From the IMG/VR virus record IMGVR_UViG_3300010340_001122: a DNA stretch of 64,000 nt. One strand, given 5' to 3'. The DNA comes from a virus. Taxonomy: Duplodnaviria; Caudoviricetes. A model generated the notes under the pieces. That model had not been told where the DNA came from, did no database searches, and worked only from the letters and a program-made list of their open reading frames with translations. Position 1 is the stretch's first letter. Every line of letters begins with the position of its first letter. Positions 6,155-41,656 of this stretch are shown here, one piece after another. A program made the position numbers and the translations under genes.

Positions 6155-6573
6155 AAAAATATTGATATTGTTCCTAAGTTAGATGTCATATAATTAATAC
6201 AATATTCTCTAATATTATTTAAATTAACACTATATACACTGACTCCTTTTTCGATAGTCATGCTATTTTTCCAACCTTGTGATTCCGTGTATTTAATACA
6301 ATCTTCAATTATTTTAATTATTTCTTGTATTTGCTTATAATCCGGTCTTATTCTAAGACATAAATAATCATTAAATCCTTTTTCAACTCCTGTATTTCTA
6401 TACCAATTCTCACCATATATCATATAAATGGTTTTACCAGTTATTTCATAGTCAGATCCTAAATCTACAATATCTAAAAGTCTATCTTCTAAATCTTCTT
6501 TGATATTATTTTCATTCTCGGTTAGATCTATTTTATAGTTTTCGAATAATTTATATGATATAATATTTTTCAT
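6142..6573 (-). CDS. Hypothetical protein (MKNIISYKLFEN N-terminus)
   Basis: 143-aa ORF in the operon. Confidence 0.6.
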   Translation of the reverse strand: MKNIISYKLFENYKIDLTENENNIKEDLEDRLLDIVDLGSDYEITGKTIYMIYGENWYRNTGVEKGFNDYLCLRIRPDYKQIQEIIKIIEDCIKYTESQGWKNSMTIEKGVSVYSVNLNNIREYCINYMTSNLGTISIFLWKI

Positions 6574-13600: not shown

Positions 13601-16600
13601 GAATTGATGGAACTTCAAGAAGTGTTAATACAAACTACGCTATATTATCATTTAGTCACTCTTTAGCATACGATCCAGAAAATGAGTCTATTTATGTTTT
13701 TGAGAATGGATCAAATTTGAAAAAAATTGATAATAATTCAATAATTGATATTCCTTCAGTTTCTACTGGTAATTTTGATTCATTATTATTTAATAATTTT
13801 AATAGTTCAATGAATTCCTCAACAGATTTAATATTTTCATCTTTATTTGTTGATGATGATAGTTTATATTATACATCATCTACTTCTGACTATGGTAATA
13901 TTACTTTAAATCAATTTGATGGTGATATGTATATTGGTGCAAATTCACAAATATTGACAATTGATACCACAACTGGACAACAAAAGCATTCTGAACCATT
14001 TTCCGGAGGCCGATTGACAAAATTAGTTTATAATCCAGATCGAAAGAGTATTTGGGCTATACAACCTGATACTGAACAAGTTGTTGAGGTTCAAGTTTAT
14101 CTAAGTAGCTCTTTTCAAGTTGAAACACTTGCCGTAACATCTTCAACTGATAATTTTTACGGAACTTTGAATCCATCGTATAATAATCGAGATTATCTTT
14201 GGTTGAATGTTAGAGAATATATAAGAAGACCTCGTGAGAATTTCAATGGTGGTCCAACAGTTAGCTTATATTGGAAATGGTTTTCTGATAATGTTCCACA
14301 ATTTTTTATGTATGATTTTAGTGGAGATCAATTAAAAACAAGCGGTGTTTTATCATATACTGGTCCAAAGCCTTTAGATACGGTTGTTCTTAATAGAAAA
14401 TCAAATAGAGATATTACTAAGGTTTCATATCCAGAATATCAACAGACTATTTTTGACTATATTGAGAACGATTTGGAGTTTATTGATGATAATACTGATG
14501 TTAGTGTTGTTCCTGAACCTATTCAATTATTTTTAGGATATAATTCATCTGATGAAGGTGCTCTTAGAAGTATTCTTCAACTTTATAAAAAAGAAGAAGT
14601 TGATTTTACAATTACAACCACCTCTATTAATAATGATATTATAACATTTGAAAATATAGTGGATGATTTTACAGGTGATAGATATGGTAAAATATCATTA
14701 AATAATGATTCAACCAGTTTGTTTACTTCTGATATTGAAGGTAATTTTAGAGGTTTGAAAGTTGGTCAACATCTTGCTATTTTTGTTAAGGATGTGACAA
14801 ATAATAAAAAGCAATATATTTCAAATAATAATGGTTATTTATTAAAAATAAGAAATGTTTTTAGCAGGGAAATCCTAGTGGATTATTTCAAAGAAGTTGA
14901 TTCTTTAGAATTTGAAACAACTATAATTAATGATTTTCCAAAGGTTAATCTTGATACATATTTATCATGTAGATTTAAAATATGGAATAGGGAATTAGGT
15001 AGATTTAATATTTTTGGCCAAACAGAAATAGAAGATGTTAGATATCATACTGAGTTAAATAACGTAGGTAAATTAATTTCATCTGATGATGTTTATATTT
15101 TTAAAGAATATGATATAAAAGAAGAAGGAATTGATTGGAATTATCTAAATTCTAAAAGAAAAGAAATGTTAATGATGAGAAATCTAATATATCCTTATAT
15201 TGGTAGTTATAAATCAATAATTAATGCTATAAACTATTTTGGATATAATGATTTAGAATTAAATGAATATTATAGAAATGTTGAAATAGAATCTGAAAAT
15301 TATTATAAATTATTTAAAGTAGAAATACCAGATATATTTGACAATACGACTGAAGGATGGAAGGATAATGATTTTATTAAACATACTTTTCCTAATCCTA
15401 AATTTGAGGATACAAATTTATTTAATTTAACATTTAGAATTACTGATAAAGAAGGTAATAATATTTTATATTATACTTTAGAAGAGGTTCAGAAGAAATT
15501 ACAGGGACTTAAATATTGGTTGCAGAAAAATATAATACCAATTACCCATAAAATTCTTGATATAACTGGTAGAGCTGATTTTGTCGGTGGGACTACAATA
15601 GTCCATCAATCATTTGATGCTCAAATATTTAATGTTAGACAAGATTTTACACCTATTATTTTCGATTTAAATGAGGCTTATTTGCTTCCAGTTAATAGTG
15701 GATCTAGTGTTTATAATTGTGTTTTAGATTTCTATATAAGTGGATCACCAACATCGAGTTTATTACCAGATTATTATACAATTGATATAAGAACGTATGA
15801 AATTTATAGAGAATGGTATGCATTTAGAAATTATCAAGTGGGTGAGAGAGTTGTTTATTACGATAAATTATATGAATCGGTTATTATTAATAATAAAACT
15901 AATAATCCAAGAAAATTTGAAAATGCTAAAACATGGATTTATGGATCAATTTATAGAATTGGTGATATTATTAAATATAATAAGTTAATATATGTTTGGA
16001 CTGAACAAGGTGGTGCGACTGCATCAATTGTATCTCCAATTTTAGATGAGGGAGTTGGTTATAATTGGTTGGATGTAACAGAATGGAAAGAAATTGATTT
16101 AACTCCTGTTGATAAGATATCTGAATATAGACATATAGATAATTTGAATCCATTTAACTTCACTATAGACTCTAATATAACACCATATTTGGTTATTGAG
16201 GTTACTTCTGACAATGGATATGGTATGATTTATAGAGATAGAAAGAACTTTGAAATAAAAGGCATATTGGATATTCAAGAAATTGAATCATTTAGTAATT
16301 TAACAACAAAACAATATCGAGATGCTACTCTTCCTATTGTTTATGCTGATGTTTCTAAAGTTATTGAATTAACAATGATATCATATCCATTTACAAGTGG
16401 TTTCTTTGACCTATATGGTAATTATACAGATAGACCTTATTTAGACAATTCTAATAATATAATTTATCCACATATTCAACATGGATATCCATATGTTATT
16501 GGAAACAGTTCTAGTTCAACTGCTAATAGCTTTAGAATTGAATTAGGTGATGACTTCTCTTATATTCAAAATCCTTATGTTATATCTAGTATAGGATCTG

Positions 16601-31610: not shown

Positions 31611-33005
31611 TTATCTTTTCCATATAAATTTAGAATTACCAGCTCCGTATATTCTGTAAATTTTCAATTCTTTTAATATTTGATGTTCTGATTTATTTTT
31701 ATCATAACCCATTTTAATTAAATTACTTTTATTATAATTGTGGCGACTTAATCTTTTATTTCCTTTTATATACCAATATGATATTTTGGATTCTGAATGA
31801 TAATTCATTCCAATTTTTTCATAAAATTTACCAGCCCATTCATTTGCACTGAAACTATAGATATATTCAACATCTTTATAAGTTTTAATAAAGTAATTAA
31901 ATAATTTACTACCAGCTCCAATAACATTACTATTTAATTTATTGCAAAATCTATATAACTCATATGTTATTTTATCATTTTTACTTGACATATTTCCCCT
32001 TGGTTTGCCAAATGTCATGACTGATACAAGTTCATTATTATGATATAATCCTAAATTTATACTTGACTTTATTGAACCCTGTAAATGATTATTAGTTAAA
32101 AATTCATTAGTTTCTTTAAAATTTATTTCTTTGATATGACATTTTCTAGCATAAATTTTAATTTTATTTAAATGTAATAAATTTTTAATCCTACTTTTTA
32201 CAATTTCTTGTTTATTTATCCATTCATCTTCATATATTTGAATTAATACTATATTATTCTTACATGACTTTTTATATTTAGAGTAATGATAATCTTTTTT
32301 TTTATTTATTTCAGAATGCCAATAGAGACCATTATATTCAAATCCTAAATTTAAATCCGGTATAAATATATCAATTTCGGTTCCTATTAATTTTCTATCA
32401 TTATAAATTATTTTTCCTGTATAAATACTTTTAATAAAATTTCTAACATCAATTTCACCATTTGAGACACTAAATGAATAGCTTACACAGCTTCTCCAAT
32501 CTAAACCAAGATATATTCTTTGTTCTATAACTTTTCTTTCAATTTTGTGTGTTTTTTCACATAAATCACATATAATTTCATACACATCATCTTCTGTTGT
32601 GTTTATTAGCTTCGCATCTCCTATTATTTTTATTAAATCATTAATTCTTTTATTTTTACGATTTTTAATATTTTTTGGTATTAGTGATGGATGATAAACA
32701 CCATATTCTTTGAATAATGTTTCTTTAGCTAAATTTTTTGATCCAGATGAACCACAAGAATTTGAACAATATTTTTGATATCCAATTGTTTTATTTTTAT
32801 ATTTTACTTTTTTACCACAATTTGGACAATTTGGAGTTTCATTTATATTAAATCTTAATTTATAAGCTTTCTCACTAATAGTATCTCCATCATTTTTTAA
32901 TATTTCCTCATATATATTCAAAGCATTATTTAATAACCATTTCTCAGTTGTGTATATACCTGATACATTATTATCATATAGTTCAAAATATTTTTCTATT
33001 CTCAT
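31611..33005 (-). mobile_element. Hef-like (PD-(D/E)XK) homing endonuclease
   Basis: CPNC and CSNSC zinc motifs, EIDIFIP..GFEYNGLYWHS, IYARKC, YELYRFC; start placed at ATG 33005 (MRIEKYFE). Confidence 0.8.
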
Positions 33006-33081
33006 TAATATATTATATATTGAATTAATATTTGGTTTTTTCCCCACACTATATTTAATAATTAAAAATAATATATACCTT

Positions 33082-33480
33082 ATGAAAATAAAAAGATATT
33101 GTAATTTTTATGAGTCGAAATCTGATAAATTTCCAAATATAAAAACTGTAATTATAGATGATTTTACTATTATGATAGGAAAAGATGCTTTGTCTAATGA
33201 TTATTTAACGACAAAGATGGCTAATGATGAGGACCTTTGGTTTCATGCTGCTGGTGTCCCTGGTAGTCATATAGTTATAAGGATTAAAGATAAGTTGCCT
33301 TCTCCAGAATTAATAAAGGAGGTTTCTAAACTAGCTGTTAAAAATTCAAAGGCACCAAAGGGAAATAAAGCTAAAGTAGTCTATTGTAAAGCTAAATTTG
33401 TTAAAAAATCATCTGATATGAAGCCCGGTCAAGTAATTGTTGATTATAAAAACTCGGAAGAAGTCATAGTTGAAAATTAA
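33082..33480 (+). CDS. Stand-alone NFACT RNA-binding (DUF814) domain protein
   Basis: IGKDALSNDYLT...DLWFHAAGVPGSHIVI...KPGQV; N-terminus MKIKRYCNFYES. Confidence 0.85.
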   Translation: MKIKRYCNFYESKSDKFPNIKTVIIDDFTIMIGKDALSNDYLTTKMANDEDLWFHAAGVPGSHIVIRIKDKLPSPELIKEVSKLAVKNSKAPKGNKAKVVYCKAKFVKKSSDMKPGQVIVDYKNSEEVIVEN

Positions 33481-35340: not shown

Positions 35341-35704
35341 GGGGATGATATGAATTGATTCGCAGGGTAATGATGGTTAAGCAAGCATCGGTTTGGTAAA
35401 GTCCGATTAAAATAAATTATCAAAATCGTAAACGGAAACGTTACAGAAGTAGGAACCAGTGAAGATTTAGTAGCTGCTCTACAAAACAACTTGCTCACTG
35501 TGAATGAGCTTGAAGTAGCTTAATTGATACTTTCACAAAATTCACACTGAATCACAACAGTATAAATAGTGATAGTTTTTTGTTAGAGTGTTTTTGAGTC
35601 GAAACAACTATCTATTTTGTGAGTTAAAGAAAAACTTTCTAAGCTTGTGAACGATTGATCGTTTTTAACTGAGGAAGACTCCGGTTCGTTACCGGACATC
35701 TCCA
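35341..35704 (+). ncRNA. ssrA: tmRNA
   Basis: 5' GGGGATG pairs with 3' CATCTCC-A, giving the G3.U Ala identity pair; T-arm TCCGG-TTCGTTA-CCGGA; TAAGCTTGT 3' motif; internal tag ORF 35434-35523; CCA not encoded. Confidence 0.9.
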
Positions 35705-35713
35705 CTGAACCAC

Positions 35714-38195: not shown

Positions 38196-38945
38196 ATGAA
38201 TATTGAAGAATTTTTTAAAAATGCTTTTAAAAAAGTAAATATTGATTTACCTTTTAAGCGATTAGAATCAGATATTTCAAACTATCAAAAATATAATTTG
38301 TATGTCAATTTACCACCAAAGGTGGTGGATTTCGAGGAAATGTATTATAACTTATTAAGAGAAAATATTGTTCGTGAGATTAATCAGTATGCTTTAAAAG
38401 TTATTATTGGTGATATAAAATCTAAGGGAAGTGTTAATTTTATTGACGTGATAGATATCAATGATAATACTAATTATAGCACAATTATCAGTATGTCAAG
38501 AAAAATTGTTAGTGAGATTAAAAATCTTAATTTACCTAATGTTATCACAAATGGTAGAATAGCTTCAGATTATCTTATGGATTCTCCAGGGTTTAATACA
38601 TATCCGATTAAAACTAGTTTAGATAGATTTAATACCTTTACAAAACATGGAAATCTTTTTGGCAGTATTGATGTTTATCTCGATTCATATATGAAATGGA
38701 ATGATGATTTCATTTTATCTTATGATGATGTCTATTATGATTTATCTGATATAAAAATCAATATTAAACAAGATCCTTCAATTACTCCAGTTCTTGAAGT
38801 TGAATTTATGATATATCATAATATTATTAATCCAAAGTTGACGTATATTGTAGAAAATGTAACTTCAACTGCCTATTCAAAATATAAATCTGAATTAAGA
38901 AATAAACGAATTGATAATATATTAGATGATGATAAAACACCTTAA
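38196..38945 (+). CDS. Diverged, truncated major-capsid-protein paralog
   Basis: ITNGRIASDYLMDSPGF...G.IDVYLDSYMKWNDDFI aligns by eye with capsid VTNGGLAASLMDIAGY...GDISIYVDPYMKYNDNRI. Confidence 0.65.
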   Translation: MNIEEFFKNAFKKVNIDLPFKRLESDISNYQKYNLYVNLPPKVVDFEEMYYNLLRENIVREINQYALKVIIGDIKSKGSVNFIDVIDINDNTNYSTIISMSRKIVSEIKNLNLPNVITNGRIASDYLMDSPGFNTYPIKTSLDRFNTFTKHGNLFGSIDVYLDSYMKWNDDFILSYDDVYYDLSDIKINIKQDPSITPVLEVEFMIYHNIINPKLTYIVENVTSTAYSKYKSELRNKRIDNILDDDKTP

Positions 38946-39303
38946 TCGAATTTATAAACTTGGATATGATATTGAGGTCGTTTGGAATAAACAGATTCAA
39001 ATAACATATGATTTCAATAGAATTTCAGGATTTGAAGAGTATGATCCAGTCTCTGTACTTATTTATGTACATGATTTCTGGAATGAATCTTTAAATTTTC
39101 AAAAGTGTTTAGAAGAAACTTGTGAGATATTTTATTCTTGGTATTCCGATAATCATAAGATGATATTAAAATATCTTGAGAATCCTCAAAAGAAATTCGA
39201 TCATTTCGCTTCAAGATCAAATATAGACAGTTTATCACTCGGTGATGTTAGTTCACAGGTGAATCGAGGAATGAGAATTGATGATATATTAGATGATTAT
39301 TGA
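38926..39303 (+). CDS. Hypothetical protein
   Basis: 125 aa; C-terminal RGMRIDDIL. Confidence 0.55.
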   Translation: MMIKHLNRIYKLGYDIEVVWNKQIQITYDFNRISGFEEYDPVSVLIYVHDFWNESLNFQKCLEETCEIFYSWYSDNHKMILKYLENPQKKFDHFASRSNIDSLSLGDVSSQVNRGMRIDDILDDY

Positions 39304-39566
39304 GCTTCATCAAGTGCGTCTTGAAGAACGTTTTGAAAAGCCATATATTGATCTGTATCTCCTTCATCATATATATCGGAGACTCCACTTTCAAAGTCTC
39401 TTATAGCATTTCTGAAATTATCGACTAATTTTCTATATTTTGAAGATTGTTTAAGTTCATCATATACATTATCATCGATAGTGGATTCATTTATTTTAGA
39501 TTCTTCTAATTCTTCTATAGCATCAATTTTGTCTTTAACCATATCTGGACTAAGATTCCAATCCAT
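39297..39566 (-). CDS. Hypothetical acidic protein (start uncertain)
   Basis: 89-aa ORF; frame stays open upstream of the ATG. Confidence 0.45.
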   Translation of the reverse strand: MDWNLSPDMVKDKIDAIEELEESKINESTIDDNVYDELKQSSKYRKLVDNFRNAIRDFESGVSDIYDEGDTDQYMAFQNVLQDALDEAQ

Positions 39567-39666
39567 TTTATGAGTTACTTTATTATACTTAATTCTTGGA
39601 TTTCCAATTAATTTTTGTCTTTCTGAATTAGGTTTACTATATATAAATATATTATATTTGTAAATT

Positions 39667-40125: not shown

Positions 40126-40145
40126 TATATAAAACCATATATTTG
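40114..40145 (+). promoter_or_regulatory. Bacteroidota-type promoter for the release factor gene, with nested late motif
   Basis: TTTG (40114) - 20 nt - TATATTTG (40138); near-identical to the tmRNA promoter. Confidence 0.7.
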
Positions 40146-40237
40146 TATTATTATGAAACTATGACTACATAATTATTAGCGAAGTGAGTAAATTACTCAC
40201 AAACAATTTTATTGTCTAAAAATTAAAAAATAAAGTC

Positions 40238-40915
40238 ATGGAACAAATTATTATAGAAATAAGAGCCGCTGAGGGCGGTCAAGATTCAAAACTTCTTGTA
40301 GAAGATTTAAGAGATATTTATCTCAAAACAGCACGAGTTAATAACTTCGATTGTAAGGTTACTAACAGAGATGGATTTGCATCTATCTGACTGACTGGTA
40401 AGAAAGTTAAGACATTTTTTAAAAATGAAAGTGGACCACATCGATGGTTAAGAATTCCACCAACTGAAAAAAAAGGTAGGACACAGACTTCAATAATTAC
40501 GGTTGCTCTAATTGATCCAAGTGATAAATTAGATTTTAATTTCAATCGTAGTGAAGTTACTAAACAATATACGAGAAGTGGTGGCGCCGGTGGTCAGAAT
40601 GTTAATCGTAGATCCACTTGTGTTCAACTAACTCATTTACCAACAGGTATTCAAGTTAAGTGTCAAGATACAAGAGACCAATGTAAAAATGAGGAATTAG
40701 CTTGGATTCGTCTTGAAGATAAACTTAGAGTAATACATGATGCGACTCAGATCAAGACAGTTTATCAAAATCGTTTCGATCAAGTTGGTACAGGTTCAAG
40801 ATCGGACAAGAAGAGATCATATAGAATCAAAGAGAATTTGGTAGTTGATCATGAAACAGGTAAGACTTGTTCATTTACTGATTTCTTAAAGGGTAGAATT
40901 GATTTATTGTCCTAA
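40238..40915 (+). CDS. Class I peptide chain release factor, RF1-type (PxT), lacking domain 1, with in-frame TGA at codon 51
   Basis: MEQIIIEIRAAEGG...GFASI*LTGK...ESGPHRWLRIPPTEKKGRTQTS...SGGAGGQNVN...THLPTGI...RSDKKRSY; 225 codons in one frame, TGA at 40388-40390. Confidence 0.9.
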
Positions 40916-41656
40916 TATTAGTTTAAACTCCTCTTCACTTTTAAAGCTTTTTTTGGAGTTATTTATCCTTTTAGTTATACAAAGGTTATCAAGTGATGAT
41001 ATTTCTTCTACTTGATAACCTTTTTTAAATCCTTCAAAGATAGAAATCTTGTGGTCTATTGTTGGATATTTCTCATCATTATAATTAAATTGAAAGTTTA
41101 GGCTTATATTTTCACCATCATAGTAATCAAGTCCATTCCATTCTTGAATTAATTTATTCTTATTTCTTTTCGTTAGATTATCAATGAGTTTTCTGTATTT
41201 GATATATACATCTTTTTCTTTCTCAGATATAAAAAGATTGTTACTTTCAAAGTATTCATTGAGAGACTTTGATATTTTATCTTTGATTTCTGGATTATTC
41301 TCATATAGTTTTAAAATAGAGTTTCTTATTTTTTCTCGAACTTCTGTCCTTTTTGAGGGGTTTTTATCACCAGTCTTTGAATCCGAGTATCTTTTTTTGG
41401 ATTCATCACTTCTTTTTTTCCCTTTACAGGATAATCCAATTCTATCTTTATGCTCTTTTGATAATTTTTTACCTTTGTGTGACTCGGACAGACTTTTTTT
41501 ATGATCATCTGAAAAAATTTGACCTTTTCTTATTTCCGATTGCTTTTTATATCCACATTTTCTACAAGATGATTTTTTATCATTTGCAAAATTTAATGAG
41601 TCTTTCGATTTATAAGATATTTCGATTGAACATAATGGACAATTTCTTTTATACAT
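40904..41656 (-). mobile_element. HNH homing endonuclease with NUMOD3-like repeats
   Basis: CPLC/CRKC, HKK.LSESHKGKKLS repeats, PTIDHKIS...NLCITKRINNSKK. Confidence 0.8.

Follow-up and report, generated by a model that had tools for sequence, protein, structure and literature searches.

A conserved in-frame stop codon in a shortened RF1-type release factor gene shared with huge phages

The phage DNA described here encodes a class I release factor of the bacterial RF1 type whose reading frame is interrupted, early and only once, by an in-frame UGA. The gene lies within a stretch of 64,000 nucleotides (the window; IMG/VR record IMGVR_UViG_3300010340_001122). The interruption is neither the trace of a broken gene nor the consequence of a changed genetic code, and the stop is very probably a selected, gene-specific recoding signal that is read in the zero frame. 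We give about an even chance to the reading, drawn from sequence comparison, that the UGA would act as a readthrough gate tying synthesis of the factor to failure of RF2-dependent termination at UGA. More broadly, the balance tips slightly towards a whole family of short RF1-type factors, carried by huge phages and present in some bacterial assemblies, being held under interchangeable stop-codon gates, namely readthrough at an in-frame UGA or UAG and +1 frameshifting at CUU-UGA or at CUU-UAG.

The interrupted gene and its product

The gene is a single open frame apart from the TGA at codon 51 (ATC TGA CTG), which is its sole in-frame stop. An earlier note on this DNA had described such a frame, with PxT and GGQ motifs and one TGA, and the coordinates in Table 1 bear this out. 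The note had also held that no restart codon lies between the stop and the catalytic core; in agreement with this, no open reading frame of at least 30 amino acids begins in the release factor frame downstream of the TGA. Upstream of the gate, residues E7, G13, G14, D16, K18, L19, D23, Y28 and G46 are all invariant in the set compared (A1).

Table 1. Coordinates of the release factor gene, its surroundings and the tRNA-like genes of relatives (window positions unless another record is named)
Feature	Position	Strand	Description or basis
Stand-alone NFACT-R domain protein	32950-33477	+	Pfam, 60.8 bits
Divergent tmRNA	35341-35707	+	Rfam RF00023 full model, 36.7 bits, E 7.8e-13
5' leader	40126-40237	+	TGACTACATAATTATTAGCG block, hairpin GTGAGT..ACTCAC, AAACAATTTTATTGTC; alignment
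Release factor gene	40238-40915	+	225 codons, ATG 40238 to TAA 40913-40915
Codons 1-50	40238-40387	+	Domain 2: strand beta1, RF1 alpha5-equivalent helix, strands beta2 and beta3
EGGQD tip motif	40271-40285	+	In RF1 alpha5-equivalent helix, before the stop
In-frame TGA gate	40388-40390	+	Codon 51, ATC TGA C
Codons 52-225 and TAA	40391-40915	+	PPT, GGQ, domains 3 and 4
PPT stop-codon-recognition tripeptide	40457-40465	+	CCA CCA ACT; RIPPTE at codons 72-77
GGQ	40589-40597	+	GGT GGT CAG; codons 118-120
ORF with NUMOD3 motif	40904-41656	-	Directly downstream
Odd-loop tRNA, LR756502	435101-435174
Odd-loop tRNAs, LR745206	407364-407437; 419836-419923
Odd-loop tRNA, L190	1950-2024
tRNA(CUA), G001	L194:1500-1571		Amber suppressor type
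Three tandem tRNA-like genes, G003	L342:14840-14939; 15058-15158; 15385-15459

The product of the gene is a shortened RF1-type factor that consists of domains 2 to 4, with PPT and GGQ, and that does without domain 1. Pfam recognises the C-terminal half of PCRF and a complete RF-1 domain (PF00472, 93 bits against a cut-off of 35), and the NCBIfam models rank in the order RF1 (181 bits), RF2 (120) and PrfH (64), all of them below their cut-offs. Thus the protein stays outside the RF1 equivalogs (NF001859, 181 bits against 400; TIGR00019, 177 against 423) as it does outside that of RF2 (TIGR00020, cut-off 370), its tripeptide being PPT and not SPF. A profile of the short family scores 239 bits against RF1 and 168 against RF2, and because it matches residues 86-316 alone of the T. 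maritima RF1, domain 1 is absent, as the earlier note had maintained. The AlphaFold2 model (pLDDT 88.1) finds as its top Foldseek match the ribosome-bound RF1 of T. thermophilus, with a TM score of 0.89 and an rmsd of 2.4 A; RF2 follows at about 0.85 and PrfH at 0.66. Identities as PrfH or ArfB were ruled out by the scores together with the gene context.

The codon specificity of the factor is less easily read. The PPT tripeptide predicts an A at the second position of the stop codon and hence a reader of UAA and UAG, a prediction that remains uncertain. Gln181 and His193 (T. thermophilus numbering), which we take from RF1-ribosome structures to be the residues that recognise the third base, are present in all 23 full-length RF1s sampled, and in the window protein their places are held by Leu71 and Gln83. 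Since both are replaced, specificity cannot safely be taken from PxT alone: the assignment to RF1 that the earlier note had made from this motif stands for the protein's RF1-like character and is in doubt for a restriction to UAA and UAG. Among the short factors the equivalent of Gln181 is Gln in most and Leu, Val or Ile in the window's subclade, and that of His193 is Gln in about half. Nearly all carry PPT; a few relatives have SPT, which, going by the tripeptide-swap experiments of Ito and colleagues from 2000, is reportedly predicted to relax specificity. Across the short factors these recognition residues show no correlation with the gate codon, be it TGA or TAG.

The neighbouring genes encode NFACT-R, NADAR, Dam methylase and NUMOD3 proteins. 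The tmRNA scores below the RF00023 gathering score of 47 and is missed both by ARAGORN and by a scan at the gathering threshold; together with the NFACT-R protein it lies no more than 8 kb upstream of the gated gene, so that three rescue or termination elements occur within 8 kb. The ORF with the NUMOD3 motif, which is typical of homing endonucleases, converges on the release factor gene, with 12 bases shared at their ends. On the other side of the gene the leader block is conserved in four relatives (L007, L087, L008 and L013). It holds a proposed three-codon mini-ORF whose ATG is missing in L007 and L087, which makes translation of the leader doubtful.

Conservation of the stop within an ordinary code

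The nearest records are phages of 634-735 kb (LR756501, LR756502, LR756504 and LR745206), with protein identities of 49-57%. These are huge phages of Al-Shayeb et al. 2020, who predicted Bacteroidetes hosts for their largest phages (634 kb and above). Three of the four have a TGA at the codon of the window and two of them a second TGA; the fourth has the second TGA only. A further 160 loci came from IMG/VR and metagenome contigs, and all were searched by local tblastn and aligned with MAFFT. In the set of 46 non-redundant relatives (44-89% identity), 39 keep a stop at codon 51, a TGA in 34 cases and a TAG in five, in spite of near-saturated synonymous sites (dS 0.6-2). The remaining seven comprise two with a +1 site, CTT TAG C, at this position, three with a TGA elsewhere and two that are gateless. 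A second gate appears repeatedly at codon 39 or codon 43, in many relatives as a further TGA. One TAG-gated relative (L010:3001-3030) has an extra A, GAAACAA in place of the GAACAA of the window, which puts the ATG out of frame; a homopolymer error may be behind this, or the gene may start elsewhere.

The same TGA is present in independent assemblies at 80-89% protein identity (L007, L087 and L008/9/88), and selection on either side of it is purifying. Against L007 the pairwise Nei-Gojobori dN/dS is 0.03 upstream of the stop and 0.11 downstream, at a dS of about 0.8; against L008 it is 0.20 upstream, and over the other pairs it spans 0.06-0.34 upstream and 0.10-0.42 downstream. Conservation at codon 51 and purifying selection on both sides were what the earlier note had proposed to look for with tblastn, and a sense codon in all homologs, the contrary case that it had named, is not what the relatives hold. 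The alignments span the stop without indel or change of frame, from which it follows that the continuation lies in the zero frame.

A pseudogene, an assembly error or a selenocysteine codon is scarcely credible as the explanation. A lone nonsense codon would be compatible with the first two, and the Cys that L011 has at the gate position would suit the third. Against decay or error stands the retention of the stop, under purifying selection, in dozens of independent assemblies. A selenoprotein was rejected, as some relatives have TAG at this codon, LR745206 and LR756502 yielded no tRNA-Sec, and no SECIS-like conserved structure follows the stop: within this clade the alifold energy 3' of the gate is 0 for 37 sequences, and fold z-scores downstream of it range from -2.8 to +0.7, with no consistent fold.

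The code of the phage is otherwise the ordinary one. With table 11 the coding density of the window is high, and TGA serves to close genes, among them those with four-base ATGA overlaps at 6570 and 6926. Reassignment of TGA throughout the genome was rejected, since table 4 yields just short extensions and antisense frames; a phage using code 4 would have many TGA-interrupted genes and better gene models under table 4, and neither is seen. An apparent second interrupted gene at 38926-39663, with five TGAs, was likewise dismissed, its part past 39303 being antisense to a minus-strand ORF at 39297-39566; the frame has no match in Pfam.

The two complete relatives, LR745206 (634,780 bp) and LR756502 (642,428 bp), were scanned for interrupted genes by taking each TGA within a TAA- or TAG-bounded frame of 100 codons or more and scoring the coding signal to either side of it and the absence of any overlapping ORF. 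The two release factor TGAs of LR745206 rank first and second among 78 candidate sites, that of LR756502 ranks first among 69, and in the window TGA 40388 is the first of six. No other convincing gene with an in-frame TGA emerged across the two genomes, and the best TAG candidates proved to be the ends of genes, each with another start behind it. The overlaps, the coding density and the two-genome scan agree with the earlier view that TGA is a normal stop elsewhere and that recoding is not genome-wide. Five large relatives have exactly one gene with an RF-1 domain each, the gated one.

The family of gates and how they may be read

What is it, then, that an early stop in a release factor gene responds to? 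The wider family is the best guide to this. A FastTree phylogeny of 151 non-redundant sequences (127 short rows, 23 full-length RF1s and one short sequence nested among the latter) separates the short factors from the full-length RF1s with a support of 99. In-frame gates are found in 80 of the 127 short factors, a +1 cassette in 31 and neither in 16, such that 111 are recoded, as compared with none of the 23 full-length RF1s (p 5e-17). The cassettes occur in about 30 more distant relatives and follow the prfB design, GGAGG..CTT TGA C, with CTT TAG C at 13 and CTT TAA C at one. The types of gate are intermixed on the tree, with 35 changes of type against 86 when labels are shuffled, and TGA and TAG gates alternate among close relatives whose recognition motifs are unchanged, some genes holding both. 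The existence of TAG, double-gate and +1 frameshift relatives makes the gate a trait of the family and not a peculiarity of UGA.

The family extends to bacterial assemblies. Short PPT-type genes with cassettes are present there, mostly in Myxococcota, where CGGAGG..CTT TGA C or CTT TAG C occurs in L336 (CP016211.1, the Minicystis rosea chromosome) and at about 50 other loci. The four closest bacterial-assembly matches, at 43-58% identity, all have TGA at codon 51; they are MAGs labelled Muribaculaceae, Bacteroidetes, Wolfebacteria and Methanobacterium.

The bases around the in-frame gates set them apart from true gene ends. The 80 non-redundant gate TGAs are followed by A in 56 cases, by C in 19, by G in five and never by T; of 162 genuine terminal TGAs from the two complete genomes, 56 (35%) are followed by T and five by C. 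T is therefore depleted at the gates (Fisher p 5e-12) and C enriched (p 1e-6). In E. coli a U after the stop gives the strongest termination and a C after UGA the weakest. The gate TGAs thus sit in a weak termination context. TAA, the terminator of about 80% of the long genes in both complete genomes, is never found as an in-frame gate.

With the readthrough gate that we favour, most ribosomes would terminate at the UGA of codon 51 and release a fragment of 50 residues, and the full-length factor would arise only from ribosomes that read the UGA through in the zero frame. The UGA would probably be decoded by a near-cognate tRNA such as tRNA-Trp; a reading as Trp fits with a sister clade of 28, where a TGA after GGC occupies a column that is Trp in 22 of 23 full-length RF1s. 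The gate would be closed by host RF2, because RF2 alone reads UGA and PPT predicts a reader of UAA and UAG. Output would consequently rise when host RF2-dependent termination becomes limiting in infection, and the factor, scarce otherwise, would act as an RF3-independent backup terminator for the mostly UAA-ended genes of the phage. Readthrough at the codon, closure by RF2 and a benefit from backup termination are all three inferred.

Two features of the family count against a sensor of RF2, namely the TAG at the same codon in five relatives and the alternation of TGA with TAG. A report specific to RF2 is awkward because the two codons exchange while the motifs stay as they are. Genes with a double gate would, moreover, give very little product by spontaneous readthrough. 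These genes, along with the exchange of TGA for TAG, sit more easily with a factor that recognises the stop in its own gene or with decoding driven by the phage. Also to be weighed against the favoured reading are the lack, in this clade, of a conserved RNA structure behind the gate that could stimulate readthrough, the loss of the Gln181 and His193 equivalents from the window protein, and the odd tRNAs of related genomes, described below. Of the readthrough switch suggested in the earlier note, then, a conserved and selected stop that needs zero-frame recoding stands, and its restriction to UGA, given the TAG and +1 relatives, does not.

A factor that reads its own gate would be a short factor of relaxed specificity that terminates at its own stop and so limits itself by readthrough, in the manner of prfB. 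Judged from the sequences this is possible though unlikely. The interchange of TGA and TAG gates among close relatives, and their joint presence in some genes, would be accounted for, and RF1-type members with CUU-UAG-C cassettes would sense themselves; Leu71 and Gln83 stand where full-length RF1s are invariant, and a few relatives carry SPT. However, PPT retains the Pro and the Thr by which RF1 is limited to stop codons with A in second place, the majority gate is UGA and not UAG, and host RF2 would shut a UGA gate whatever the phage factor does.

Decoding driven by the phage would amount to a timing gate: at a fixed point in infection the phage itself would boost the decoding of UGA, by way of a non-canonical tRNA or by putting RF2 out of action, and the factor would be switched on. 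On the scale of one gene this would repeat the code-switch model for recoded phages, in which Borges et al. (10.1101/2021.08.26.457843) proposed suppressor-driven late expression and noted that phage suppressors can evade detection. The search for a tRNA with a UCA anticodon that the earlier note had called for found no canonical one in the window or, with ARAGORN, in LR745206 (59 tRNA genes called) and LR756502. The tRNA cluster of G006 holds no canonical UGA suppressor, and in G003, a 318-kb phage (96% complete), the 22 tRNAs in the cluster that adjoins a TGA- and TAG-gated gene include neither UCA nor CUA.

What the genomes do contain is one or two tRNAs each with anticodon loops of 6 or 8 nucleotides, to which ARAGORN assigns no anticodon. 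Their loops are UUUUCA, CAGUAGGG, UUGUAA and CCUCAA, and UCA lies within two of them. A tRNA(CUA) is present in a 501-kb phage (G001) whose release factor gene is TGA-gated and whose flanks are without TAG recoding. About 9 kb from the release factor gene of G003 there are in addition three tandem tRNA-like genes with identical acceptor and T arms and with enlarged, aberrant anticodon arms. The odd tRNAs with UUUUCA and CCUCAA, the tRNA(CUA) and the aberrant trio speak for a timing gate. Against it are the absence of a canonical UCA tRNA from two complete genomes and the consideration that a suppressor would be of use to a single gene and would misread the ends of the 7-12% of phage genes that TGA terminates. 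A gate of this kind is distinctly unlikely.

It is very unlikely, too, that the stop is a fixed attenuator or that the gene yields two products, whether a functional peptide of 50 residues or two halves that are made by reinitiation at a CTG, ATT or ATA codon after the stop and then assemble. The stronger conservation of codons 1-50 in the comparison with L007 would agree with a functional peptide, and the codon after the codon-51 gate is indeed often CTG, ATT or ATA. Yet the codons that follow other gates (AGA, GCT and AAG) are unlike starts, relatives of the frameshift type necessarily yield one fused chain, and in the AlphaFold2 model the gate cuts through a beta-strand of domain 2. As for a mere attenuator, it would be a coincidence that the element used belongs to the factor's own class of signal.

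Comparison with known recoded release factors

The readthrough gate has its closest bacterial parallel in prfB. The RF2 gene likewise encodes a class I release factor and has an early in-frame stop, and how often ribosomes terminate there decides how much full-length protein is made; its +1 cassette (Shine-Dalgarno sequence and CUU UGA C) is also that of the distant members of the phage family. The window gene shares the early stop that needs recoding (codon 51 of 225) and differs in that it continues in the zero frame, has neither Shine-Dalgarno sequence nor CUU for a +1 shift, and encodes an RF1-type factor that is without domain 1. Unlike prfB, the phage gates may be UGA or UAG and are sometimes doubled. 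In their review of recoding, Atkins et al. 2016 (PMC5009743) recall that readthrough of an in-frame UGA had once been proposed for RF2, before gene sequences were available, and state that no bacterial RF2 gene has this in-frame design and that a UAG/RF1 counterpart is unknown; the one viral case that they give is the Mimivirus factor. If the family is indeed gated as proposed, it would bring to life the readthrough autoregulation that was once hypothesised for release factors and, along with it, an amber/RF1 equivalent of the prfB switch, and phages could gauge, and put right, the termination capacity of a cell that they infect.

The closest viral precedent is the eRF1-type gene of Mimivirus. 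Mimivirus R726 and Megavirus mg280 need readthrough of an internal stop as well as a frameshift, and the factor gene is reported as the only recoded gene in the genome (Jeudy et al. 2012, PMC3521657). R726 is in this respect like the window gene, a virus-encoded release factor gene that needs readthrough of an internal stop. It is, though, of the eukaryotic and archaeal type and belongs to an amoebal virus, whereas the window factor is a bacterial RF1-type protein of different fold from a phage and arose independently.

Phage-encoded class I release factors are linked to stop-codon decoding in recoded phages as well, with RF1 in the TGA-recoded Jade phages and RF2 in the TAG-recoded Lak phages (Borges et al.). 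Their release factor genes are in the standard code and free of internal stops, and it is many other phage genes that are recoded; in the window phage TGA remains a stop and the release factor gene alone is interrupted. PrfH, for its part, also has no domain 1 and retains a codon-recognition-like domain and GGQ. The window protein is unlike it both in score (63.8 bits for TIGR03072 against a cut-off of 166.65) and in structure (TM 0.66 as opposed to 0.89 for RF1), and no RtcB partner is encoded in the neighbouring genes scanned.

A full-text search of the literature returned no description of in-frame stops in phage genes for bacterial-type release factors. Al-Shayeb et al. 2020 merely list release factors among huge-phage genes, and Burroughs and Aravind 2019 make no mention of phage factors. 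Gene callers split or truncate gated genes, so phage release factors are probably under-annotated. RF2 is the textbook gene that senses its own product through recoding, and a simpler, in-frame version of the arrangement appears in these phages, which suggests that large phages monitor the termination of translation in their hosts. With in-frame gates that are conserved over dozens of lineages and are interchangeable with frameshift versions, the family offers a natural set of sequences in which the trade-offs among stop-codon context, readthrough and frameshifting are laid out.
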